The position numbers were made by a program, and so were the translations under genes. DNA of 64,000 nt from positions 8,345-72,344 of the forward strand of contig CAYMHI010000001.1 in the NCBI GenBank assembly GCA_964390265.1, in the 5' to 3' direction. The stretch comes from an uncultured Candidatus Saccharibacteria bacterium. GTDB taxonomy: Bacteria > Patescibacteriota > Saccharimonadia > CAILAD01 > BJGX01. This document shows, one piece after another, positions 5,252 to 28,573 of this stretch; the stretch's first letter is position 1; every line of letters starts with the position of its first letter. The notes below the pieces were generated by a model, which was not told the DNA's origin, searched no databases, and saw nothing but the letters and a program-made list of their open reading frames with translations.

Positions 5252-6574
5252 ATGAACGAAACAAGTGAAGAAAAAGTAGAAAAAGTAGCAGCAACCCCAG
5301 AGCTGAACGCTGCCGAAAAAGAAGTTGTAAAGTTTCTAGATGCCAGAATAGACGCAGAGCCAGAGAAAATGCGCAAATTAATGACCGAGAATTTTCAGGC
5401 TAACTATGATTTTTCAGTTTTAGACCCTCAAAAGCCTCAAAAAACTCAGCCGGTTTCATTTAGAATTATTAGAACTAGTAAAGAGGCCGGTAGTTTTTCG
5501 GTCACTGCTGAGATATTAAATGAAAATCAAAAGAGTCATAAACAAAAAACCATTAGCAAGATATATGATCTTACGAAAGACGCGGACTCCAAACAGCTCT
5601 TAATTAACTCCGAGAAAAACCTCAAATCAGATGTACCGTTTTATAAAAAACCTGTTTTCTGGATAGCCACAGTTATGGGATTGGCTGCTATTGCCGGGCT
5701 AGTATTTTGGGCTATAACCAGTCAAAAAACTACTCAAAATCAACAGTCTATTAAGGCCAACTGGCACCAAGTAGTAGATGGTGCAAAAGGGGTTGATGAT
5801 GCCGCGGCCAACGCTACTAAAGACCAGGCTGGTTATGACAATTACACCAAAAAGCTTAGCGACTACAAAAGCCTGGTTGGCGATGTTAAGTTTAGGGCCG
5901 ATCAACTCAAGCCTACTAGCGCCGACAAAGAAGACATTGCCAATTACAAAAATGCGCTTGTTAACTTAAATGATTATATATCGGAGGCGTCTAATCAAAG
6001 TAAGAATGTTGCTAGCCTTACTACTGCCGATTCATCTAAGCTAGATGATCTAGCTAATACGGCTGAGGCCGCTACCAATAAATTTCAAGATGGCGCTAAA
6101 TATCTAAGCGACAAAATGCCCACAGATATTTTTAACATTGGTGATGTACTGGCAAAGCAAAAAGATAAGCTCGATCAAGATAAACAGAAGGTGCAAGAAG
6201 CCCAAAACGCCGCCGCCGATGTGGTCGCCAAAGATGCTGCCAACAAAACCACAGTTACGAACAATATAACAACTTTTGAGCAAGGCTACATAGCCGGCAA
6301 TGAATCTGTAATGCGCCCAGTTATGACAGCTGGATTCCAAGGAGAATATAACTTCAACCAATTAACTCCCGAGCAACGTCAATATCAATACCCTAGCAGC
6401 TTTAGAATAATTAATGTTACTAAACAAGCCGATGGAACATACAAAGCTCAAGTAAATGTATTGTATAAATACACTGACAACCCCAACCAATATACCCAGG
6501 GTTATGAATACAGCGTAATTGGTCAAAATAATAAGTGGCTAATTAATAACGAAAAAACTGTTAGCGAATTTTAA
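5252..6574 (+). CDS. Hypothetical membrane-anchored protein
   Basis: Long ORF with one central TM helix and coiled-coil and low-complexity regions. No recognisable motif. Confidence 0.5.
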   Translation: MNETSEEKVEKVAATPELNAAEKEVVKFLDARIDAEPEKMRKLMTENFQANYDFSVLDPQKPQKTQPVSFRIIRTSKEAGSFSVTAEILNENQKSHKQKTISKIYDLTKDADSKQLLINSEKNLKSDVPFYKKPVFWIATVMGLAAIAGLVFWAITSQKTTQNQQSIKANWHQVVDGAKGVDDAAANATKDQAGYDNYTKKLSDYKSLVGDVKFRADQLKPTSADKEDIANYKNALVNLNDYISEASNQSKNVASLTTADSSKLDDLANTAEAATNKFQDGAKYLSDKMPTDIFNIGDVLAKQKDKLDQDKQKVQEAQNAAADVVAKDAANKTTVTNNITTFEQGYIAGNESVMRPVMTAGFQGEYNFNQLTPEQRQYQYPSSFRIINVTKQADGTYKAQVNVLYKYTDNPNQYTQGYEYSVIGQNNKWLINNEKTVSEF

Positions 6575-7255: not shown

Positions 7256-7333
7256 TGGGGTGAGTGATGGGACTTGAACCCACGGCCTTCTGGACCACAA
7301 CCAGACGCTCTAACCAACTGAGCTACACCCACC
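7256..7333 (-). tRNA. tRNA-His (GTG), with encoded G-1 and CCA
   Basis: Cloverleaf read on the minus strand. Anticodon loop TTGTGGT. An extra 5' G is typical of tRNA-His. Confidence 0.85.
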
Positions 7334-7503
7334 TCGTCGAAAGTGTGCTAACACTATCGACAATAGAATATCTATTCGCCTACAGTTAACACACAACTTT
7401 CTCCTCTCGAATCACGAAACAACCAAGTGTTTATTTCATGATTCGGTTTAGAAAAAGATCAGATCTATACTTTTAGTTGGCGTTGCTATGCCTCAGCGTT
7501 ATA

Positions 7504-7580
7504 TGGTGCCCCCGGCAGGATTCGAACCTACGACCCTCGGTTTAGAAAACCGATGCTCTATCCAGCTGAGCTACGGGGGC
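7504..7580 (-). tRNA. tRNA-Arg (TCT)
   Basis: Minus strand sequence GCCCCCGTAGCTCAGCTGGATAGAGCATCGGTTTTCTAAACCGA...CGGGGGCACCA. Anticodon UCU. Confidence 0.85.
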
Positions 7581-7780
7581 GCGTCTTCGTCGGACAACCG
7601 TAGTGACTTACATACCTATTTTCGAAGATACAATTTTACTTATTCATGATTGTAAAATAACTGTCCTGAACTTATTGTAACAATAAAGTAGTGTGCAGGG
7701 TATAAATTTAACAATTGTGAATGGGCTGTCTTAACCGAATAAAATGTGCACATTTTATTCGAGGAGGAAAAGTATTGTAG

Positions 7781-7836
7781 TTAACAAACAAATAAGCAGA
7801 ACCCCAAAGTTGAAACTCTGCTTATTTGTTTGTATT
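7781..7836. repeat. Perfect hairpin with a 16-bp stem
   Basis: aacaaacaaataagcag / ctgcttatttgtttgt with an 18-nt loop, followed by a T-rich tract on the plus strand. Confidence 0.5.
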
Positions 7837-7890
7837 TATACAATACTTTGACGATGGGGCGGTGTTCTACGCTAAAGCTACGATACAACT

Positions 7891-7950
7891 TCCAGATTAA
7901 ACTTCACTCATGCATTCTTAATTTGAATAATTAAGCGTAGCGTGAGTGAA
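7891..7950. terminator. Strong hairpin with a stem of about 16 bp, immediately 3' of tRNA-Gly on the minus strand
   Basis: ttaaacttcactcatgc ... gcgtgagtgaagtttaa inverted repeat. Confidence 0.5.
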
Positions 7951-7956
7951 GTTTAA

Positions 7957-8031
7957 TGGAGCGGGTAGCGGGAATCAAACCCGCATCACCTGCTTGGAAG
8001 GCAGGAGTAATAATCATTATACGATACCCGC
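7957..8031 (-). tRNA. tRNA-Gly (TCC)
   Basis: Minus strand sequence GCGGGTATCG...CCTGCCTTCCAAGCAGG...CCCGCTCCA. Anticodon UCC. Confidence 0.85.
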
Positions 8032-8278
8032 ATATCTATAAAGTGCAATCGATTTGAAAGAACATAGCTTATTATACAAGATTTGTATATGCAGCGCTAT
8101 CTTGCAGACAATGTATATTACTCCAAATGTTAATATATTACAAGACAATAAAGTAACTAGCGCAACTCTAAATTAGAATAAAAGTAAATATTATATTCAA
8201 AACCGTTTATACTTGCTTTGGTAGTTGTTTGGGTGTTTAATAGTAGTTAAGAAATATATTTTAAAAAGGAGAATTAAA

Positions 8279-8674
8279 ATGATAAACGGAAAATTAAAAA
8301 AGCTAGCCGTAGTAGGTGGAGCAGCAGTATCAGCCTTGGTACCTACTCTTGCTCGTGCAGCTGACTACAGCTCAGACTACACCACTACAACAACCACTAC
8401 AGATGGCGCTGCCGCTGCAGGTATCGTAGGTGTGTCGCTACTATTTATGTTCTTGTGGTTTGCATTTGCAATATTTGCACTTGTGTACTGGATACTAATG
8501 CTAATTGACGTAATTAAACGTACCAATTGGGAAAACGAAAGCGACAAAACTCTATGGTTGCTAGTTGTAATATTGCTAGGCATACTAGGTGCATTGGTTT
8601 ACCGATTTGTAGTTGTTTCAAAACTAGGCAAAGCTAGCGCACAAAAAACTTCTACTCCAGCTGCTAAAAAATAA
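8279..8674 (+). CDS. Small secreted/membrane protein with a PLD-nuclease N-terminal-like (PLDc_N) membrane domain
   Basis: AAAGGAGA RBS. Signal peptide, a Thr run, then the WILMLIDVIKRTNWE..DKTLWLLVVILLGILGALVY motif. Confidence 0.55.
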   Translation: MINGKLKKLAVVGGAAVSALVPTLARAADYSSDYTTTTTTTDGAAAAGIVGVSLLFMFLWFAFAIFALVYWILMLIDVIKRTNWENESDKTLWLLVVILLGILGALVYRFVVVSKLGKASAQKTSTPAAKK

Positions 8675-8705
8675 ATAAATAAGTAAGTAAGTAAGTAACT
8701 TGTTT

Positions 8706-8740
8706 AAGAAGAGCCCTACACACTAAGGGCTCTTTTTTTA
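8706..8740 (+). terminator. Rho-independent terminator
   Basis: gagccctacacactaagggctc followed by a T8 run. Confidence 0.8.
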
Positions 8741-8787
8741 TAGCTATAATTATGCTAGTATAAACAGGTTAAATTTAGTAAAATAAT

Positions 8788-8864
8788 GCGCCCTTAGCTC
8801 AGCTGGATAGAGCGTCTGGCTTCGGACCAGAAGGCCGGGGGTTCGAATCCCTCAGGGCGCACCA
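8788..8864 (+). tRNA. tRNA-Arg (TCG)
   Basis: GCGCCCTTAGCTCAGCTGGATAGAGCGTCTGGCTTCGGACCAGA...GGGCGCACCA. Anticodon UCG. Confidence 0.85.
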
Positions 8865-8917
8865 TATAATTGAGTCTTGGCTAAAAGCCAATGACACAAT
8901 TATAAAGTATGATTTGA

Positions 8918-8998
8918 TGAGAGACCCAGGGTTCGGTGCAGTAAAGCGCGCAGTGTCAAAACAAATTAATTTGGTTTTGACCAAGCACTTTACCTTAA
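8918..8998 (+). ncRNA. Conserved element of about 80 nt, copy A. Candidate structured RNA or miniature inserted element.
   Basis: It is paralogous to 10735-10815. It shares the gatga.aga...ggttcggtg...gcgcag...CAAAAC-hairpin-GTTTTG...agcac pattern. Confidence 0.35.
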
Positions 8999-9012
8999 GA
9001 GGCGTAGCCGCT

Positions 9013-9030
9013 ATCCCTCAGGGCGCACCA
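9013..9030 (+). repeat. 18-nt direct repeat of the tRNA-Arg(TCG) 3' end (atccctcagggcgcacca). It looks like an att-like target duplication.
   Basis: Exact copy of positions 8847-8864, located 148 bp downstream. Confidence 0.7.
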
Positions 9031-9212
9031 CGTTATATTATGTTAGACGATATATTCTAGATGTTAGAATAAAATTAAAACTAAATTAATTAATCTTCTA
9101 GCAAATTGAATAAGCTTGCTTGTTCAATTGAAGAGGAGAATGACTTGCGAACGGTGAAAGTAATTATTTACAATAATTTCTGCAACAATCAGTAATCGTT
9201 CGACGACGACGA

Positions 9213-9288
9213 GGGTCTGTAGCTCAATTGGCAGAGCAGTTGCCTCTTAAGCAATTGGTTGTGGGTTCGAGTCCCACCGGACCCACCA
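9213..9288 (+). tRNA. tRNA-Lys (CTT)
   Basis: GGGTCTGTAGCTCAATTGGCAGAGCAGTTGCCTCTTAAGCAAT...GGACCCACCA. Anticodon CUU. Confidence 0.8.
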
Positions 9289-9374
9289 AGAAAGTATCTC
9301 AGCGAATGCTGGGATTTTTTCTTGGTAAAACATTAATTTAAAAAAAGCCTACCAAATAGGTAGGCAGAGATGAA

Positions 9375-10421
9375 CTATAAGTCGCCGGTACGACTAAAAA
9401 AGTGTTTCCATCTTGAGTCTGGAATAGGAGTAACGCTTGGGGAGTGCAAGAGGTTATGGCCCTCCAGAAGATACTCGATTATTGCCATGAGTATTGGCAC
9501 GCTATAGCCAGACTGTGCAAAGTGCTTAGCTCGCCTGTCATTGTCTATCTCTGGCATTAGATCATTACTTCGAGGTAATGGGTGCATAAGTATTGCATTG
9601 GGGCTCAACATTCGCATCACACTCTCATCGATGAAATAAGCAGACCCACCAGCTCCCACCCAGTAGAATACATCAGTGTCTAGAACCATCGAGTCGAGAT
9701 TGGTCGTTTCTTTGAATTCAATATCACTCAAATACAAATTCTCTCGCAACTCATCATCTATACGTGCACTTTCAAGTGATACAAATATGAAGCTGATATT
9801 TTCGAAGAGACACAATGCTAGAGCAAGGTTTCGCGCAGTTATATTGCGACGAAGATCGCCACCAATCACCACGCGCAAATTCTGTAGTCTACCCACTTCT
9901 CGATAGATAGTATAGAGATCTACTAGCGTTTGCAATGGGTCATCTGCTATATTGATCATTGCGGCACTACTATGGTGAGCCGAGAGCTCTAACTCTTTAC
10001 TTGGCGGCTGATTGACCGCAATAATGTGAGGCTTGTACTCACTCAGTGACTTTAGTAAATCAGATAAACTTTCATCTCCAGCGCTATCCACATCTATAAT
10101 ACTTATTCCCATTCTTTTGGCAGCGGTAAAGAGAGATGTTTGTGATCGAGGAGACGGGCAGTCTAGCAACGTGTAGAGTAAGTAGTCTCTATAAAGACTG
10201 GCACTGACTTGAGGGTTTGGTACGCGAAGTCCATAACCCAACTGCTGTACGTATATATCTACAGCGGCAAAAAGATCTAACAAGAATTGTTTGCTCAGCT
10301 GAGAGGTGCTTAGTATGTGACGTAGTTTGGTTGATTTCTTTTGCAAAGGAACAAACCTTTCAATATGTTTGGTCGAAAGAAGTTCGTTTGATATAGTAGG
10401 CCAACAGGTAGCAAAAGTCAA
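9375..10421 (-). CDS. Aspartate/ornithine carbamoyltransferase-like protein with a degenerate N-terminal carbamoyl-phosphate motif
   Basis: The C-terminal MHPLPRSNDLMPEIDND...F.QSG motif is a near-perfect match to the ATCase HPLPRVDEI...F.Q..G motif. The N-terminal STRTR motif is replaced by SPRSQT, and HPTQ is not recognisable. Confidence 0.6.
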   Translation of the reverse strand: MTFATCWPTISNELLSTKHIERFVPLQKKSTKLRHILSTSQLSKQFLLDLFAAVDIYVQQLGYGLRVPNPQVSASLYRDYLLYTLLDCPSPRSQTSLFTAAKRMGISIIDVDSAGDESLSDLLKSLSEYKPHIIAVNQPPSKELELSAHHSSAAMINIADDPLQTLVDLYTIYREVGRLQNLRVVIGGDLRRNITARNLALALCLFENISFIFVSLESARIDDELRENLYLSDIEFKETTNLDSMVLDTDVFYWVGAGGSAYFIDESVMRMLSPNAILMHPLPRSNDLMPEIDNDRRAKHFAQSGYSVPILMAIIEYLLEGHNLLHSPSVTPIPDSRWKHFFSRTGDL

Positions 10422-10616
10422 TGTGCAGGTTGAAAAATAACCAGTTTATTGGTATGGTTAGTAGCGTGATATAAGATTATTCTTATTTCTTTTCCCATCT
10501 ACAGTTCGTGAAACAATAGAATAGTTGTTTAGCGAACTGAGAGGAGAAATAATGCGAAAGTTATAGAATTAAATGTAATAATATTTAATTTGCCAATTGA
10601 AGCATTATTTGGACGA

Positions 10617-10693
10617 CGGGGTGTGGCGCAGTTGGCTAGCGCGCTTGGTTTGGGACCAAGAGGTCGAAGGTTCGAGTCCTTTCACCCCGACCA
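10617..10693 (+). tRNA. tRNA-Pro (TGG)
   Basis: CGGGGTGTGGCGCAGTTGGCTAGCGCGCTTGGTTTGGGACCAAG...CACCCCGACCA. Anticodon UGG. Confidence 0.85.
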
Positions 10694-16059: not shown

Positions 16060-16725
16060 ATGTCACCGGTAACTTCAAAACGTCAATATGTTGGCGCCAT
16101 GGATCATAGTAGTAGGCTGGCTCTAGTTGAAGAAATCAAACCGCTATATATGTGGTTTAGCCCAGATTCAACAGATTTGGATATTTTAATTAGACTTACA
16201 TACATGCCAAATGCAACCTGCACAACGCTAACCGAAGATGGCAGGTGCGTGGGCTTTATGATCTCGCATATTGAAAAGCATAAAAAATCCTTAGTGCTTT
16301 ACGTTAAGGGCGTGATTGTAGACGAACTATATAGATCGAGACACTATTTTCGTAAAATGCTTGAAGATGCGATAGAACTCTATCAACCAAACTACATCGC
16401 ACTTACCACGCAAAATCCCAGAGTTTATACGATGCTGGCAAAGATCTGTGGCGTAGAGAACGTGTACCCTCGCCACACTTATCCGCCTGGTTATGAGATT
16501 CTAGACCTTGCTCGTCAATTAATCTCTGGTGGCGCAACGAGCGGTGAGGTGGGTGACACAGAAATTCGTAACCTTGTGCTGAAGGGACACTATACCTCAT
16601 CTAGGCCCGAAGACAAGACATATATGTCTAGTGATATGACAAATGTAGATGGCTTTTTTGACAGCCAGCTTGGCCCTACCGATGGATTTTTGGTAATTGC
16701 CCGCTTCATTACGCCAGGTAGATAA
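16060..16725 (+). CDS. Hypothetical protein, possibly a GNAT-fold acyltransferase
   Basis: IVDELYRSRHYFRKMLEDAIE resembles GNAT motif A. This is a weak call. Confidence 0.35.
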   Translation: MSPVTSKRQYVGAMDHSSRLALVEEIKPLYMWFSPDSTDLDILIRLTYMPNATCTTLTEDGRCVGFMISHIEKHKKSLVLYVKGVIVDELYRSRHYFRKMLEDAIELYQPNYIALTTQNPRVYTMLAKICGVENVYPRHTYPPGYEILDLARQLISGGATSGEVGDTEIRNLVLKGHYTSSRPEDKTYMSSDMTNVDGFFDSQLGPTDGFLVIARFITPGR

Positions 16726-16849
16726 TACCTGGCTTTTTTATTGACAAAAAATAATTATTTGTTAGACTAGACATATTGTAGTACCCCTAAGTTATTAAAA
16801 CCTTTGATCTAGTTCTCTTAATTTAGTAAGAGGTTGGGGCTAGATCGCA

Positions 16850-17066
16850 CATTGTGCAAGGTAGCTTCTGCGTGAGTGGAGGTTCGGCACCCTCCGTTAT
16901 CATGGGGCAAACGACACAACTAGGCTTGTTCGTTAGAGTGCTTAAGACAAATCGTTTTAAGCAAGTAAGGTGGCACCGCGGAGATTCCCGCCCTTACCGT
17001 ACAATTATTTGTACTGCGAGGGCGGGGTTTTTATACCTGCACGTTCCTTCACAACTAGGAGAGTGA
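16850..17066 (+). promoter_or_regulatory. T-box riboswitch leader with antiterminator/terminator, probably tRNA-Trp-responsive
   Basis: aaGGTGGCACCGCGGag at 16967-16981 matches the T-box consensus GGUGGNACCGCGG exactly. Helices GTAAGG/CCTTAC and GCGG/CCGC flank the 7-nt bulge UGGCACC. The overlapping terminator CCCGCCC...GGGCGGGG plus T5 spans 16987-17032. The regulated ORF begins at 17068. Confidence 0.75.
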
Positions 17067-17067
17067 A

Positions 17068-18414
17068 ATGAGCAATCAACCCATTTCTTTGATTACACTT
17101 GCAGACGATCGACTTGCGAAGCAAAATGCTCGCGAGAAAGTTGCAGTTGGTTACGACCCAGTAACGCGCACTGGTCGCTACGCTGATCAACTTAAGCTGC
17201 TTGGCGAAATACCATATAGAGAACTAGATGCCAAAATAAAACGTGGCGAAAGCCTAACATTCGATGAGGCCTTTGTAGGGATGTGTTATGTGCTCTGCAC
17301 TACTAACGCGCACTTGCGACAGGTATTTGCTCCATTGATTGCCCAGGCATACGCTAGGCCGTATATAGGAGATTTTGAACTTTCGCTAGTAGGCACTGCT
17401 TTCATTTCTTCTATGGCTACCAAAGAAGCACTAACTAGTCTTAGCTGGCAAGAGATTGCAGGCTTTGTGGCTGCTGCTTCTATGGACACAGTTGTAGAAC
17501 TACAGTTTGATGAAGCAGTAGAAACCTGCGGAATGGGTGGCGACCGAGGCTATGCCCGTTTGCGAGGTAAGAAGACTATTAATGTTTCTACCCTAAGTGC
17601 AATAGTGCTTGCTGCCGCGGGTTTGCCAACGCTCAAGCACGGCTCTTATGGCAATACCACAAAAATCGGTAGTACTGAAGCAATTGAGATGTTTGGTGTC
17701 AATCCAAATTACACCTCGACAGATGAAGTGTATGCAAATTTCGCTAAAATTGGATTTTGCTATCTTGATGCTCACTGGTCAAAGACCATTCACGATTTGT
17801 CGCATCTACTTATGATGGAAACCATTAACCACATTGTTGGCCCAATGACTCCGCCAATTAGTCGTCGTACTAGGCTAACAAAACTCATTGGTGTCAACGA
17901 GAAGGTGCACCCCGAAGACATTACAAAGGCGTATGCCGAGCTGCATAGGCGAGGTGTTTACAACGTCGGTGGTGTAGTTGCTGTTTGTGGCCTTTCAGAC
18001 GGCTGGAGCCGGGTACATCACGACAGAGCATTTACCCGTAGATTTGGCATCCTCGACGAACTATCACCGTTTGGTAATATGATCGCCATTAGCTATGAAG
18101 ACCAAATACTGGGGTGTACGTATTTCGATCTAAGGACGTTGTGCGAAGTAGACCCGGATGAAATATTTGTAGAAAACAGCAGAGCCACACTAGAAATCGC
18201 CAACTCTGAGGCCATTTCGGGAGCAAACCCATCATTGGCACGCTACCTGGCAGCAAACGCTGCATTTGGCTACTATGCCTATATGTATTTGGGCAAGGAG
18301 CCCTCTACGCTGCGCGGCCTAGATGCCAATCTGCTTCATTCAGCATATAGTATCTGCCTGCATACAATATCGAGTGGTAAAGCTGTAGAATTTCTTCACT
18401 CTCTAGTACAGTAG
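17068..18414 (+). CDS. Anthranilate phosphoribosyltransferase-like protein (glycosyltransferase family 3, TrpD/TrpD2-like)
   Basis: ETCGMGGDRGYARLRGKKTINVSTLSAIVLAAAGLPTLKHGSYGNTTKIGSTEAIEMFG corresponds to the TrpD DTCGTGGD...KHGN...GS.D.LE core. Confidence 0.7.
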   Translation: MSNQPISLITLADDRLAKQNAREKVAVGYDPVTRTGRYADQLKLLGEIPYRELDAKIKRGESLTFDEAFVGMCYVLCTTNAHLRQVFAPLIAQAYARPYIGDFELSLVGTAFISSMATKEALTSLSWQEIAGFVAAASMDTVVELQFDEAVETCGMGGDRGYARLRGKKTINVSTLSAIVLAAAGLPTLKHGSYGNTTKIGSTEAIEMFGVNPNYTSTDEVYANFAKIGFCYLDAHWSKTIHDLSHLLMMETINHIVGPMTPPISRRTRLTKLIGVNEKVHPEDITKAYAELHRRGVYNVGGVVAVCGLSDGWSRVHHDRAFTRRFGILDELSPFGNMIAISYEDQILGCTYFDLRTLCEVDPDEIFVENSRATLEIANSEAISGANPSLARYLAANAAFGYYAYMYLGKEPSTLRGLDANLLHSAYSICLHTISSGKAVEFLHSLVQ

Positions 18415-18468
18415 TTGTGTCATAATGGCGACTGTTTTTTAGTCGCCATTTTATTTATAGTTATTATT

Positions 18469-19296
18469 ATGGAAAAGTTTAAAAAAATATTTAAAAAAGA
18501 TAAAAATGTGATTATTGGTGCACTGCACTTTGATCCTCTTTTGGGCTACAAAGATCACCCAGGCAAGTCTCAACTTGAACAAGATGCCATGGACGACCTT
18601 AATGCATTAATAGTCGGTGGTGTCGACGCAATTATTATTGAGAATAATTATGACTACCCACACAAGGAGAAGATTAGTTTAGAAAATCGCAAATACATGG
18701 TTGGGCTAGGCAAAAAAGTTGCCAGCAATTGCCAACTGCCAATTGGCGTGAGTGTGTTATGGAACGACTACGAGTCGGCATTTTATATCGCCAAAAAGAT
18801 CGGTGCTAAGTTTATTCGTGTACCCGTTTTTGTTGACGATGTAAAAACCAGCTATGGTAGTTTTTTGGCGAATCCCCAAAAAGTAACAAAAACAAGAAGC
18901 GATATGCGTGCGGATGATGTATTGATATTTGCAGATATTCAAGTCAAGCATGCTACCGTTTTACAACCCAGATCTATCGAGGTATCAGCGCAAGCCGCAA
19001 TAAATGCTGGCGCCGATGCAATAATTGTTACCGGAAACTGGACTGGAGAATCACCGGACGTAAGCGACCTCAAAAAAATTCACCACACAGCTAGTCAGTT
19101 TCCTATAATTATCGGCAGTGGTTTAAACGTAAGAAATGCGGTACGTTTACTTGGCTATTGCACCGGTGCGATTGTATCTACCTCTATTAAAGAAGGCAGG
19201 ACAAGGCGAAAAGAAGTTAATCTTAAAAGTTGGCATCAACGTATTAGTCCACAAAAGACTACCCAGCTAATGTTGAAAATAAAAAATCCCACCTAG
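18469..19296 (+). CDS. BtpA/SgcQ-family TIM-barrel protein (ribulose-phosphate-binding barrel superfamily)
   Basis: N-terminal VIIGALHFDPLLGY...DAIIIEN is typical of the BtpA family. The GGGAGA RBS is absent and spacing is weak. A hairpin at 18427-18447 precedes it. Confidence 0.5.
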   Translation: MEKFKKIFKKDKNVIIGALHFDPLLGYKDHPGKSQLEQDAMDDLNALIVGGVDAIIIENNYDYPHKEKISLENRKYMVGLGKKVASNCQLPIGVSVLWNDYESAFYIAKKIGAKFIRVPVFVDDVKTSYGSFLANPQKVTKTRSDMRADDVLIFADIQVKHATVLQPRSIEVSAQAAINAGADAIIVTGNWTGESPDVSDLKKIHHTASQFPIIIGSGLNVRNAVRLLGYCTGAIVSTSIKEGRTRRKEVNLKSWHQRISPQKTTQLMLKIKNPT

Positions 19297-19310: not shown

Positions 19311-19317
19311 GGCATTG

Positions 19318-19391
<74 letters not shown>

Positions 19392-20037: not shown

Positions 20038-21066
20038 ATGAACCCTGACAAGAAAGGTAATAAAGTGGGAAGCACTGTGCTTTCAGGCATACGCGCAACA
20101 GGCCGGATGCATTTTGGGAATTTCGTAGGTGCAGTAGACAACTTTGTACGCTACCAAGCCAACCCAGAAAATACATGTATGTATTTCGTAGCTGACTTGC
20201 ATACGCTAACAACTCTTGAAGATCCAGAGGAACTTAGAAGAAATTTGGTTGAGATGGTAAAGGACTATTTGGCCGCGGGCCTTGATCCTGACAAATCAAT
20301 CATCTATGCTCAGTCAAGCATTCCAGAAATTCCTGAGTTGATGTTGCTCCTGGGTATGTTTCAACCTTTAGGCGAGCTACAACTAATCCCTACCTACAAA
20401 GATTTGGTGAAGAATAATCCCGACAGGATTACTCATGGCCTACTTTCTTACCCGGTGCTAATGGCGGCTGATATTTTGGGGCCCCAAGCCAACCTTGTCC
20501 CGGTCGGTAGCGACCAAAGTCCAAACGTAGAGCTTGCTCGCGATCTTGCGGTGAGGTTCAATAATCGATTTGGCACAACTTTTGCTGTGCCCGAAATGAT
20601 GAAAGAAATGGTAAAGGTACCTGGGCTGGATGGTCATAAGATGGGGAAGTCTTCCTCAGACAACGCTATCGGTATTGGCGATACTGCAGTAGAAATTCGC
20701 AGTAAATATCTCAAAAGAGGTATTACAGACACCAATAAAGCTCGTAAGAATGACCCTGGAGATCCATATAACGGATGTAAGTCGGTATATGCTGTACATG
20801 AGATGGTGACTGAGGGGGAGCGTGAAACTCGTACCATTGCCAATCTGTGCCGTAGTGGGCAAATTGGCTGCGTAGAATGTAAAAATATGTTGGTTGATGG
20901 TATTGCCGCAATTCTAGAACCATTCCAGCAGCGTAGAGCTGAGCTCGATAATCAGAACGACTACGTAACAGATGTTCTAGTAGAAGGTGGAAATGCTGCA
21001 CGAGCAGTAATTGCCCAAACGGTAGAAGATGTGCGTACAAAAATGGGGATCGTTAGATATGTCTAG
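20038..21066 (+). CDS. trpS: Tryptophanyl-tRNA synthetase with a Cys4 (probable 4Fe-4S) motif
   Basis: HFGN (HIGH-like) and KMGKS motifs and class I Trp/Tyr family length. Its C-x23-C-x6-C-x2-C motif is close to the Thermotoga TrpRS iron-sulfur motif C-x22-C-x6-C-x2-C. Confidence 0.85.
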   Translation: MNPDKKGNKVGSTVLSGIRATGRMHFGNFVGAVDNFVRYQANPENTCMYFVADLHTLTTLEDPEELRRNLVEMVKDYLAAGLDPDKSIIYAQSSIPEIPELMLLLGMFQPLGELQLIPTYKDLVKNNPDRITHGLLSYPVLMAADILGPQANLVPVGSDQSPNVELARDLAVRFNNRFGTTFAVPEMMKEMVKVPGLDGHKMGKSSSDNAIGIGDTAVEIRSKYLKRGITDTNKARKNDPGDPYNGCKSVYAVHEMVTEGERETRTIANLCRSGQIGCVECKNMLVDGIAAILEPFQQRRAELDNQNDYVTDVLVEGGNAARAVIAQTVEDVRTKMGIVRYV

Positions 21067-22228
21067 TCAAAACACTGAAATTAATTGGCGTGCCAAACTG
21101 TTACAAACAGGTGCAGATTTAGCCGTACTAGACTCACTACTTGTGGGTATTTATCTAAAAAGAGTTGAAGTTGCTCATAGAGTAATTCAGGCCAAGGTAG
21201 GTATAGCATTACAAGAAGGTGTTCAAGACGAACTTCCTTATGGGCCGCAAATATTCGCGCCCGATAGAGAAGACATGCGTCTAGACGTGGTAGCAGAATT
21301 GGCCAGAACGTATGGAGTTAACCCTAATTTTGCCAGAGCGATGGAGTATTGGTTGATAGATGAGGGCTGCAAGGTGCAGGCTGATTTTTTGCAGACAGGC
21401 AGAGTACGTCTTGAGCCAGCAACTCAAGACGAGATGCGCAGAAATCTCTTAGAGCTCACTGCACAAGTAGCTGATACATACGATGAAAGCTACGACGGTC
21501 TTTATCCGGCGACTCATGAGTACTTGCGCTATGAGAGCGATGTGTTGCATGCTTTGCTGTCTCAATTACCAAGTCGCCATTTGGCACTAGACTTGGGTTG
21601 TGCGACCGCTGGATTCACCCTAAAATACGCCGACAAGTTTGAAGATGTTGTAGCTGTAGATATTAGTCCAGATATGTGCAGAGTAGCTTCCGATAAAGTT
21701 GAGCATGCAGCTTCAAATATCACTGTCATCCAAGGAGATATTGAGTCAGATGCCTTTTGGGATCAGATTGCAAATAACTCTGTGTGTCTAGTGACTATGT
21801 CTTTTGGTACAGCCAGCGATGTAAGCGATATTGGCTACGTCATTCGGCAGATAGATAGAGTGTTACGTCGAGGCGGCAAAGCGTTACTTTCTTTCTACAA
21901 CAGAGATGCATTGGTCTATAGTTTTGACTTTCTACCTTGGCGAGCCTCGTTGGCTGCCGTGTTAGACCCTGGCCTTAAGACGCTGACCGTAAATACCACC
22001 TATGTCTTGTCGGCAAATGCATATTCTCCAGAAGAGATTTACGATATGAGAATGCCAAACTCGATTCACATCAAAACACTAACCACATTTCCGACACTAC
22101 TGCCAGTAGTGCCACCAGAGACGTGTAGTAACCCAGTGGTAGAAGAACGATTCTTGAAACTGGACCTTGAACGTGCTGCTGGAGGCGGCGAAGACGGTGC
22201 ATACATAGTATGTGTATTGTCTAAATAG
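21060..22228 (+). CDS. Two-domain protein with an unknown N-domain and a class I SAM-dependent methyltransferase domain. It is translationally coupled to trpS.
   Basis: ATGTCTAG overlap with the trpS stop. Motif I is LDLGCATAGFT and the post-I Asp is VAVDIS. Confidence 0.7.
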
Positions 22229-27352: not shown

Positions 27353-28573
27353 ATGAGTGAACCAAACGGCCTAGATGGCCAAGCTGAACCTACTGAAGAA
27401 CGTAAGGGATTAGAACCATTAGAACCAAAGCAGCCTAAGCAATTAGACTGGAGTGAATATCGCAAAATTGCCGACCAAAAAGCTATTGGTGTTCGAAAAG
27501 TTGGATTGCTAGATGAAAAGCAAGCTATACAGGCATTAAGTGATGAGCGCACTATTACCATACCGACCGAAATTGGCGATATACCAATCTTTACCCCTAT
27601 TGAATATGCCTCGGGTTTTGATGTCGATAGAGCTACTGGAATTGCCCGAAATCACACAATGGGGCAAGTTGAAGCACTTTATTACTTTTGTGTGCCACCA
27701 AATTTACTCGCGGAAGAAACTCACTACCAAATAATTGTTGACAACCTCAAGAGGCTTAGCAGTCATCAAGTAGGGATTTACTTTGATTTTGTCGAAAATG
27801 ATCCAAAGTCTAGAGATGAACTGTTGGCTCTCTTAAGCAAGACCGGGGTTGACTACAGCGAAATTGCTTTGCACGATGGCCGATCAGAACATGGCGATCG
27901 AGACGTATCTATTAATTTTTATAGATGCGTAACTTCGCGAACAGAAATGAAACCTACAGATCTCCCCAACATAGATATCTATGAAGCTTATACAAGGGCA
28001 TGTGAAATGGGTGAATTCGAATATATGCCAAGAGATGGAGCAGCAATACTAAAAGGTAGTGAGCTACAAGTTGATTTAGTTGAAAAGCTATGGGAGATAT
28101 ATCAAAATCGTTTTGAATGGCTTGGTGAGAATCATCCCATTTCAATGGAGGACGAGAAAGATCAATTTATCGAAGCACTAAAAGATAACAATACTACGCT
28201 TAGTATATTTTTTAAAGATGGTGAGCCAGTGTGCTGGACGTATTTCACAACCAACACAGAAGCTGAATACTGGCTCAATAAATCATTTATTCAAAAACAT
28301 ATTGAGCCTGGTACTGAACTACTATTCTTTCCAGGTATAGTTGCTAAAAAGATCGATGATATGGCTGGTTTTTCTGAACCTACGCTGAAGTTGGCTGCGC
28401 AAATGATTGGTCGTACTAGCCGAGACTATACAGTAATGTTTGAAAATACTGGTGTATCGGAGGAGTATATACCTAGGCTCGTCAAAGAATATGCCGATTC
28501 CTCTGAAACAATAACAGTAGATTTACCAGTTAAGATAGATAACACTTTATATGGACTGGTAATAACCAACTAA
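27353..28573 (+). CDS. Hypothetical protein, probably co-transcribed with the decarboxylase
   Basis: 8-nt gap after the decarboxylase stop, followed by a bidirectional terminator. No recognisable motif. Confidence 0.5.
   Translation: MSEPNGLDGQAEPTEERKGLEPLEPKQPKQLDWSEYRKIADQKAIGVRKVGLLDEKQAIQALSDERTITIPTEIGDIPIFTPIEYASGFDVDRATGIARNHTMGQVEALYYFCVPPNLLAEETHYQIIVDNLKRLSSHQVGIYFDFVENDPKSRDELLALLSKTGVDYSEIALHDGRSEHGDRDVSINFYRCVTSRTEMKPTDLPNIDIYEAYTRACEMGEFEYMPRDGAAILKGSELQVDLVEKLWEIYQNRFEWLGENHPISMEDEKDQFIEALKDNNTTLSIFFKDGEPVCWTYFTTNTEAEYWLNKSFIQKHIEPGTELLFFPGIVAKKIDDMAGFSEPTLKLAAQMIGRTSRDYTVMFENTGVSEEYIPRLVKEYADSSETITVDLPVKIDNTLYGLVITN

Follow-up and report, generated by a model that had tools for sequence, protein, structure and literature searches.

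The window, meaning the whole 64-kb stretch of DNA that was analysed, has a G+C content of 41% and carries five aaRS genes together with genes for glycolytic enzymes, RNase Y, and a sortase. Every named close relative of its PGK belongs to Candidatus Saccharibacteria (77, 60, 57, and 56% identity), in agreement with the Saccharibacteria/CPR host proposed in an earlier, sequence-only reading of this DNA. No canonical trp gene was found among the approximately 35 annotated ORFs of the window, and CPR/Saccharibacteria have been reported to be without de novo amino-acid pathways (PMC12815258; bioRxiv 10.1101/2022.03.25.485537). The locus described here consists of the following features:

16741..16768, + strand: sigma-70-like promoter, TTGACA, 16-nt spacer, (TG)TAGACT (consensus match only, 10/12 hexamer positions, extended -10 TG)
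16796-17032, + strand: T-box leader, predicted to be Trp-specific and transcription-attenuating (Rfam RF00230 and our own covariance model R1)
17068..18414, + strand: TrpD-like phosphoribosyltransferase, 448 aa, predicted first regulated gene (ATG at 17068, SD GGAG at 17058-61)
18469..19296, + strand: BtpA/SgcQ-family protein, 275 aa from its ATG, predicted second regulated gene
19317..19391, - strand: tRNA-Trp, anticodon CCA, G73, CCA not encoded, predicted ligand of the switch

The terminator of an upstream GNAT gene (16713-16733) ends just before the promoter, and transcription probably starts just 3' of the promoter, as judged from its sequence.

A cmsearch with RF00230, the check proposed in the sequence-only reading, returned a match at 16795-16998 covering the complete model (positions 1-219) at 42.7 bits, with E-values of 3.3e-8 on 501 nt and 4.3e-6 on the entire window. 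In a scan by E-value threshold this was the sole RF00230 T-box within the 64 kb. Rfam sets the gathering score of RF00230 at 93 bits, a value chosen for curation that marks no biological feature; because 42.7 bits falls below it, a default gathering-threshold scan of the window missed the leader and returned eight tRNAs and nothing else. Scored with R1, the leader reached 181 bits. Since the RF00230 match extends to 16795, the leader begins at about 16796, roughly 50 nt farther upstream than position 16850, where it had been placed before. A chance match was ruled out by the E-values and by covariation among relatives.

Relatives were collected by scanning species-representative genomes and metagenomes for the TrpD-like protein, which gave 143 loci. 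A regular expression for the T-box core recovered 56 distinct leaders upstream of the TrpD-like gene and missed about a quarter of the covariance-model set; the core is conserved in related genomes. Model R1 (206 positions, 55 pairs) was built from 14 leaders with the architecture of the window, and it located a leader in 79/133 CPR sources, exactly one per locus, always on the + strand and upstream of the TrpD-like gene. Pairing was evaluated in a model-guided alignment of 23 leaders (A4), which replaced a MAFFT alignment (A3) in which Stem III and three sequences were mis-registered. In A4, 94.6% of cells were paired, compared with 39-48% when the 3' partners were slid by 1-3 columns; pairing percentages from A4 are somewhat inflated because it was aligned to the model's own structure, and the slid-partner control argues that this upward bias is small. 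Forty of the 55 pairs changed on both sides, none of 500 shuffles reached any observed measure, and the same compensations were visible in the raw MAFFT alignment. The elements of the leader, with pairing percentages that carry the same slight inflation, are:

16800..16862, + strand: Stem I, short variant (RNA fold and covariation)
16800-04 / 16858-62, + strand: Stem I P1, ACCUU/AAGGU, 89.6% paired
16806-13 / 16839-46, + strand: Stem I P2, GAUCUAGU / GCUAGAUC, 97.7% paired, 8/8 pairs changed on both sides
16814-20 / 16827-33, + strand: Stem I distal hairpin P3, UCUCUUA/UAAGAGG, 6-nt loop, 98.7% paired
16834..16838, + strand: specifier loop UUGGG, 3'-side internal loop of Stem I
16835-16837, + strand: specifier codon UGG (Trp), followed by purine G16838; UGG invariant in all related leaders
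16847..16857, + strand: inserted hairpin P4, GCAC-AUU-GUGC, 100% paired, 4/4 pairs changed on both sides
16864..16883, + strand: Stem II, GCUUCUGC / GUGGAGGU, loop GUGA, 98.4% paired, 5/8 pairs changed on both sides
16885..16907, + strand: Stem IIA CGG/CCG and IIB pseudoknot; IIA invariant, pseudoknot covarying
16890-93 / 16904-07, + strand: IIB pseudoknot, loop CCCU with GGGG, 82.7% paired
[quoted passage not shown]
16910..16934, + strand: linker hairpin AACGA/UCGUU, 94.5% paired, 5/5 pairs changed on both sides
16935..16962, + strand: conserved purine-rich AGAGUG, then Stem III GCUUAAGAC / GUUUUAAGC (Rfam alignment)
16965..16997, + strand: antiterminator (discriminator), 94-95% paired (two helices), isolated fold -11.4 kcal/mol
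16965-70 / 16992-97, + strand: antiterminator helix A1, GUAAGG/CCUUAC
16971-77, + strand: T-box bulge UGGCACC, 7 nt; UGGC (16971-74) is complementary to the tRNA 3' end GCCA
16978-81 / 16988-91, + strand: antiterminator helix A2, GCGG/CCGC
16986..17032, + strand: intrinsic terminator, fold -28.7 kcal/mol

Folding yielded the Stem I with a specifier loop that the sequence-only reading had suggested looking for. This Stem I is unusual at both ends. At its tip, the distal platform (AG bulge and distal loop, which dock the tRNA elbow) was not found in the window and just the 7-bp hairpin P3 is present, with a loop of 6 nt that is not conserved among relatives; in the RF00230 alignment, 86 model positions are skipped and spanned by 50 nt. 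The distal platform is typical of transcriptional T-boxes, and not universal among them. At the base, P4 lies between P2 and P1 on the 3' strand and forms a three-way junction that occupies the canonical GA/K-turn site of T-boxes. The 5' UGA is kept there, but its G and A pair Watson-Crick with U and C, and no GA (K-turn) motif was found at the base of the window's Stem I, where the 3' strand carries P4. A reading of the base as a K-junction with G·A pairs retained was considered, and it fits poorly to the Watson-Crick register, which is backed by covariation. The short Stem I recurs in two relatives (L071 and L072), there with the UGA/GA K-turn present and P4 absent. The description of the leader as a canonical T-box was therefore mistaken: Stem I is without its distal platform, the K-turn has been replaced, and the Rfam score does not reach half of the gathering threshold.

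The remainder of the decoding domain follows the known plan. Stem II carries the conserved motif UGC-NNNA-GUG, and the window has Stem II, the Stem IIA/B pseudoknot, and the F-box, elements that are present in most T-boxes and absent in glyQS. The pseudoknot was 82.7% paired, compared with at most 55% when slid, and all five of its pairs changed on both sides; the outermost pair forms in just 6/23 sequences. The linker hairpin is conserved in the window's CPR class and is a 26-nt insertion relative to the Rfam model. Stem III was 74.8% paired across the 23 leaders of A4, where its alignment is imperfect because stem lengths vary. In the antiterminator, the T-box core GGTGGCACCGCGG (= GGUGGCACCGCGG) was located at 16969-16981, and the longer stretch AAGGUGGCACCGCGG at 16967-81 contains the conserved 7-nt UGGNACC bulge. 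Every statement that had been made about the letters of this core, of helices A1 and A2, and of the bulge was confirmed, and the covariation check proposed for the two helices came out in their favor (94-95% paired across the 23 leaders).

The RF00230 E-values, the R1 score, covariation, and a segment common to antiterminator and terminator (described below) all support the claim of a T-box with an antiterminator/terminator switch. Three observations had been named in advance as capable of counting against it, namely the lack of a significant RF00230 hit, the lack of a Stem I with specifier loop, and a core not conserved in related genomes; each was examined, and none does.

The reading that survives best beside a working switch, and it is very unlikely, is that the leader is the relic of a decayed T-box, with switching lost and the operon either constitutively terminated or constitutively read through. 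Decay does occur in the family: L003/L004 and L012 keep the decoding domain and have lost the UGGNACC discriminator, and because L003 is the closest-but-one relative of the window, the switch can decay in this very lineage. The truncated Stem I and low Rfam score of the window would suit such a history. Against it, every functional element is intact in the window and matches its tRNA, and these elements persist, with compensatory changes, in the nearest relative (L001). All helices covary, the antiterminator included, which points to purifying selection on the fold.

Across the CPR, Stem I varies widely within this one regulon. The full-length, Uhrbacteria-type form, in which the platform is present, occurs in L038, L040, L042, L044, L045, L110, L118, and L121; other forms in the regulon are the window's type, the WWE3 type, and hairpins whose terminal loop holds the specifier, for example GGGG-AGAAUGGG-CCCC. 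The Rfam gathering score was reached by 2/20 CPR leaders (94.8 and 94.3 against 93), both with a full-length Stem I. As the threshold misses the other 18 of the 20 leaders tested, annotation pipelines mostly will not show CPR T-boxes. A full-text search of openly accessible papers found no description of T-boxes in CPR, Patescibacteria, or Saccharibacteria. The CPR leaders are a single Trp-specific, vertically conserved regulon, and they extend the range of T-boxes to Saccharibacteria, Paceibacteria, WWE3, Uhrbacteria, and Gottesman-/Microgenomates-type lineages. No T-box was found on the window's five aaRS genes in scans with R1 and RF00230.

The output of the switch was assessed from the alternative folds. 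In the terminator stem, CCCGCCCUUAC, which also supplies the 3' strands of the antiterminator, pairs with GGGCGGGG; its parts are CCCGCCC at 16987-93, GGGCGGGG at 17020-27, and a U5 run at 17028-32. Antiterminator and terminator are mutually exclusive since both use the segment 16987-16998, and the folding energies (-28.7 vs -11.4 kcal/mol) favor the terminator by default. The sequence-only reading had described a terminator overlapping the 3' half of the antiterminator and ending about 35 nt before the ATG at 17068, and this description holds. A hairpin with a U-run was found 30-45 nt past the antiterminator in 76/77 non-redundant leaders, and the SD lies outside both alternative folds; these two findings indicate transcription attenuation.

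They also weigh on the possibility that the leader is a translational T-box acting by SD sequestration, as in the actinobacterial class with a short Stem I. A short Stem I offset by Stem II and IIA/B is described as a hallmark of translational T-boxes (PMC11297988), and the window shows this combination, with no elbow contact. A strong G+C hairpin with U5 placed 35 nt before the start codon, an SD that neither fold includes, and the hairpin and U-run of 76/77 relatives all argue against that output, and the translational reading is rated a little lower still than the relic.

Specificity was read from the specifier loop and from the tRNA. Aligned specifier-loop readings were GUUGGGG (window), AUUGGGC, GCUGGGU, AAUGGGC, AGUGGUC, AUUGGAC, GUUGGAA, and GAUGGAG, in which UGG is the sole triplet kept unchanged through all six Stem I architectures. 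On the 3' side, the pair closing the loop (A4 columns 19-84) covaries (GC 12, UG 6, AU 5), and the reading frame of the specifier is therefore fixed. According to the '+0' frame rule of TBDB, the specifier lies 2-4 nt from the end of the specifier bulge (PMC7778990); given the covarying closing pair, UGG followed by one purine sits at exactly this position. The same UGG and purine align with the end of the curated specifier-loop region in L038, a leader that passes the Rfam gathering score. The tentative assignment of UGG made from the letters was borne out by this position and by its invariance in related leaders. Codon and purine thus stand at the 3' end of the specifier loop, and the codon is complementary to the tRNA-Trp(CCA) of the host.

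The gene for this tRNA lies 2.3 kb from the leader, and its acceptor strands GGGGGUG/CACCCCC are followed by G73. A bulge C had been taken to predict a tRNA with G73, and the C does pair with G73 of the local tRNA-Trp. At the variable bulge position, 51 leaders have C and 21 have U, and tRNA-Trp genes encoded alongside carry G73 in 11 C-type loci, the window included. A mix of C and U opposite G73 is listed in TBDB as a known signature of Trp T-boxes (PMC7778990). One locus (L030), with A73 against a bulge C, is a real exception. Apparent discriminator mismatches at L049 and L080 look like off-by-one tRNA boundaries.

On the same evidence, a T-box for another amino acid is about as improbable as a translational one. 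The triplets GGG (Gly), UUG (Leu), and GUU (Val) overlap in the window's loop GUUGGGG, and without the closing pair U16813-G16839 it is GGG that would take the +0 frame. That closing pair covaries, however, and UGG alone is constant across the loops of the leaders. The bulge C requires G73, which tRNA-Trp has; in bacteria, U73 is the known discriminator of tRNA-Gly and A73 that of tRNA-Leu and tRNA-Val. The context is likewise linked to Trp, with a TrpD-like gene downstream and trpS and tRNA-Trp adjacent. The last alternative, that ORF 16854-17066 codes for a 70-aa protein, has next to no chance of being correct: a frame with a GTG start is open in the window, but it has no Pfam match, it is not conserved (stop-free stretches in L001, the nearest relative, do not exceed 36 codons), and its substitutions are compensatory changes of RNA pairs, so that the earlier assignment of this ORF to the leader stands.

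The first gene downstream belongs to a family of approximately 450-aa proteins found across the CPR. Its product matches Glycos_transf_3 and matches TIGR01245 (trpD) weakly, at 92.1 bits against a cutoff of 199; the label TrpD-like given earlier is thus appropriate, whereas a TrpD equivalog it is not. Its alignment partners among solved structures are genuine TrpD proteins. The PRPP/Mg motifs GTGGD (here GMGGD), NxST, KHG, and DE(V/L)SP are kept and are invariant in the protein alignment A1, which was aligned to 1gxb. On the acceptor side, replacements are invariant in the family: KHGNR has become KHGSY and G-R-T-x-F-N has become M-E-T-I-N-H, with the R of GxRTxFN aligned to an invariant E (alignment to S. 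solfataricus TrpD). We take the residues of KHGNR and GxRTxFN to be acceptor-site positions, as in TrpD structures. Compared with TrpD (TIGR01245; PDB 1gxb, 1zvw), the TrpD-like protein has the same Glycos_transf_3 family and the same PRPP/Mg motifs; it differs in an N-terminal extension of about 110 aa, in the replaced acceptor-side residues, and in a gene that lies outside a trp operon. The BtpA-family protein gave no sequence match in the PDB, and an in-frame TTG at 18415 would extend it to 293 aa.

The BtpA-family gene comes next after the TrpD-like gene in 56/67 loci, and trpS was found within 3 kb in 34 of the 67. In several loci, TrpD-like, BtpA, and TrpRS (trpS) genes follow one another in this order on one strand, in the same directed gene string. 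Recurrent neighbours include a PfkB kinase, an IU-nucleoside hydrolase, an AstE/AspA-like hydrolase, a membrane protein, a PLP decarboxylase, an M20 peptidase, a HAD phosphatase, and a Trp_repressor-family protein. Of these, the genes for the PfkB kinase, the nucleoside hydrolase, and the HAD phosphatase often accompany the TrpD-like/BtpA pair. No TrpD-like/BtpA fusion was found among the fetched loci; a 98%-identical strain, however, has a Gln codon where the stop would separate the two genes, giving a fusion protein of 752 aa. A search of openly accessible papers found none on the BtpA/TrpD pair. The sequence-only reading had considered a target other than an aaRS gene worthy of attention; this is not remarkable, since Trp T-boxes of Firmicutes are well known on trp biosynthesis and transport genes (PMC7778990, PMC9382623).

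Taken with its sequence elements, their covariation, their conservation in CPR, and the matching tRNA, the segment 16796-17032 is very probably a tRNA-Trp-responsive T-box that controls read-through into the two-gene operon at 17068-18414 and 18469-19296. By analogy with the established T-box mechanism, the leader would bind the tRNA, sense its charge, and set read-through as follows. The decoding module, made up of the short Stem I, Stem II, and the IIA/B pseudoknot, would bind the anticodon CCA of tRNA-Trp through UGG at 16835-37. The G73-C-C-A end of an uncharged tRNA would then pair with the bulge UGGC at 16971-74 and stabilise the weak antiterminator (-11.4 kcal/mol), allowing RNA polymerase to pass the terminator site. 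With a charged tRNA, or with none, CCCGCCCUUAC would go into the stronger terminator (-28.7 kcal/mol) and transcription would stop at the U5 of 17028-32. The operon would in this way be switched on when tryptophan is short. Because neither an elbow platform nor a clear K-turn is present, it is uncertain whether tRNA capture is fast enough for co-transcriptional control.

If the operon follows the usual T-box logic, the TrpD-like/BtpA pair should raise the supply of charged tRNA-Trp, and the switch would label two conserved CPR genes as induced by uncharged tRNA-Trp. With such a physiological label, in bacteria whose hosts are thought to supply amino acids, the role of these genes becomes directly testable. 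The mechanism belongs to a known family; what is new is the lineage (within the literature searched), the Stem I variant, and the target operon. Two wider readings may also hold, a possibility offered tentatively and with the balance somewhat against it: the CPR TrpD-like/BtpA pair would be an unrecognised route of tryptophan supply, and the leader would represent a distinct structural class of T-box. The first, if true, would imply that bacteria without de novo amino-acid pathways obtain tryptophan by salvage, or by partial synthesis out of a host-derived precursor, through a PRPP-dependent transferase with a remodelled acceptor pocket and a phosphate-binding barrel enzyme. The second, if true, would describe a transcriptional T-box that does without elbow docking, has a three-way junction where the K-turn would be, and captures tRNA co-transcriptionally by a different kinetic route. 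Among the orthologous leaders of this regulon, Stem I can be anything between full-length and a bare hairpin, always coupled to a terminator, and the CPR leaders thereby offer a natural test set for what transcriptional T-boxes need of Stem I.

Compared with Class I transcriptional T-boxes of Firmicutes (B. subtilis tyrS and glyQS; RF00230), the window likewise has a codon and a purine at the 3' end of the Stem I loop, a UGGN bulge suited to pairing with NCCA, and mutually exclusive antiterminator and terminator folds. Like tyrS, the window also has Stem II, Stem III, and a IIA/B pseudoknot with its F-box; glyQS lacks Stem II. The window differs from this class in having no distal AG bulge or distal loop, in a three-way junction with a covarying hairpin in place of the K-turn, in an extra conserved linker hairpin, and in an RF00230 score (42.7 bits) that lies below the gathering score of 93.

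Translational T-boxes of Actinobacteria, for example Mycobacterium tuberculosis ileS, were reportedly described by Sherwood in 2015, and we know of no three-way junction described at the base of Stem I in actinobacterial T-boxes. They resemble the window in a shortened Stem I without elbow contact and in decoding by Stem I, Stem II, and IIA/B (PMC11297988). They sequester the Shine-Dalgarno sequence, whereas the window has an intrinsic terminator; they also differ in amino acid (Ile, not Trp) and in phylum. With a short Stem I that has no platform, followed by a terminator, the leader thus joins a decoding module that resembles the translational T-boxes of Actinobacteria to a transcriptional output.

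The Trp T-boxes of Firmicutes, found on trp operons, trpS, and the trpX transporter gene, share with the window the UGG specifier and a bulge C or U opposite G73, and they control genes that raise tryptophan supply (PMC7778990, PMC9382623). The window differs from them in its CPR/Saccharibacteria host and in its target, which is an uncharacterised TrpD-like/BtpA pair and not trpEGDCFBA, trpS alone, or a transporter.

Five aminoacyl-tRNA synthetase genes are spread across the window, which also holds the following features (window coordinates):

14663, 20023, 23110, 45400 and 53294: aminoacyl-tRNA synthetase genes for His, Trp, Pro, Met and Ala, respectively
7256-10693, both strands: six clustered tRNA genes (His, Arg, Gly, Arg, Lys, Pro)
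18424-18450: hairpin with a 9-bp stem, AUGGCGACU...AGUCGCCAU, and a U-rich tail
21029-22228: gene that overlaps the trpS end and codes for a weak chorismate-mutase-like domain (CM_2) joined to a SAM methyltransferase

No T-box was found at any of the five synthetase genes, and T-box use within this segment is restricted to the TrpD-like operon. The tRNA-Trp gene (19317-19391) does not encode its CCA end. Two window ORFs, 5252-6574 (440 aa) and 27353-28573 (406 aa), had no Pfam match at an E value of 1e-5 or better.

Among the loci that were checked, a single clear mismatch to the rule that the variable bulge base pairs with tRNA base 73 was observed, at L030, where an apparent A73 in tRNA-Trp (6228-6300) is set against a C in the T-box bulge (T-box at 2560-2763). 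The leaders of three other loci (L003, 5730-5990; L004; L012, 2672-2960) retain Stem I with UGG, the P4 hairpin inserted at its base, Stem II and the IIA/B pseudoknot element; the UGGNACC discriminator is absent from all three, which carry a plain terminator only. These leaders may be decayed or rewired T-boxes. At L003 the BtpA partner is also missing beside the TrpD-like gene.

Many of the metagenome-assembled genome records that contain the CPR-specific module together with the T-box bear the title 'uncultured Gammaproteobacteria' or 'uncultured Pseudomonadales' (L011-L013, L021, L022, L029, L035, L037, L040 and others), and two are titled Woesearchaeota. These titles probably reflect taxonomic mislabels or mis-binned contigs.

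The TrpD-like stop codon (18412-18414) and the BtpA ATG (18469) are 54 nt apart; the hairpin at 18424-18450 lies between them, and the same stem is present in the nearest relative, L001 (3328-3352). Possible roles for it are internal attenuation, processing or stabilisation. Across this junction (18412-18469; P0123) the two ORFs share a reading frame and are divided by one TAG, which is replaced by a Gln codon in a strain 98% identical, giving a 752-aa TrpD-like/BtpA fusion protein. In some members of the family the TrpD-like domain is fused to a C-terminal HAD-phosphatase domain (L019, L029, L055, L096 and L147; ORFs of 705-726 aa), an arrangement which suggests that the phosphoribosylated product is dephosphorylated.

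The CM_2 match in the 21029-22228 product scored 24.7 bits, under the cutoff, and the CM_2/SAM methyltransferase gene recurs close to the module in about 10 loci; a chorismate-mutase-like domain is odd in an organism without an aromatic amino-acid pathway. Near the TrpD-like/BtpA module of L069 (1598-1909) and six other loci lies a small protein of the Trp_repressor family (YerC/YecD-like; Pfam E value of 1e-19), which may regulate Trp at a second, protein-based level.
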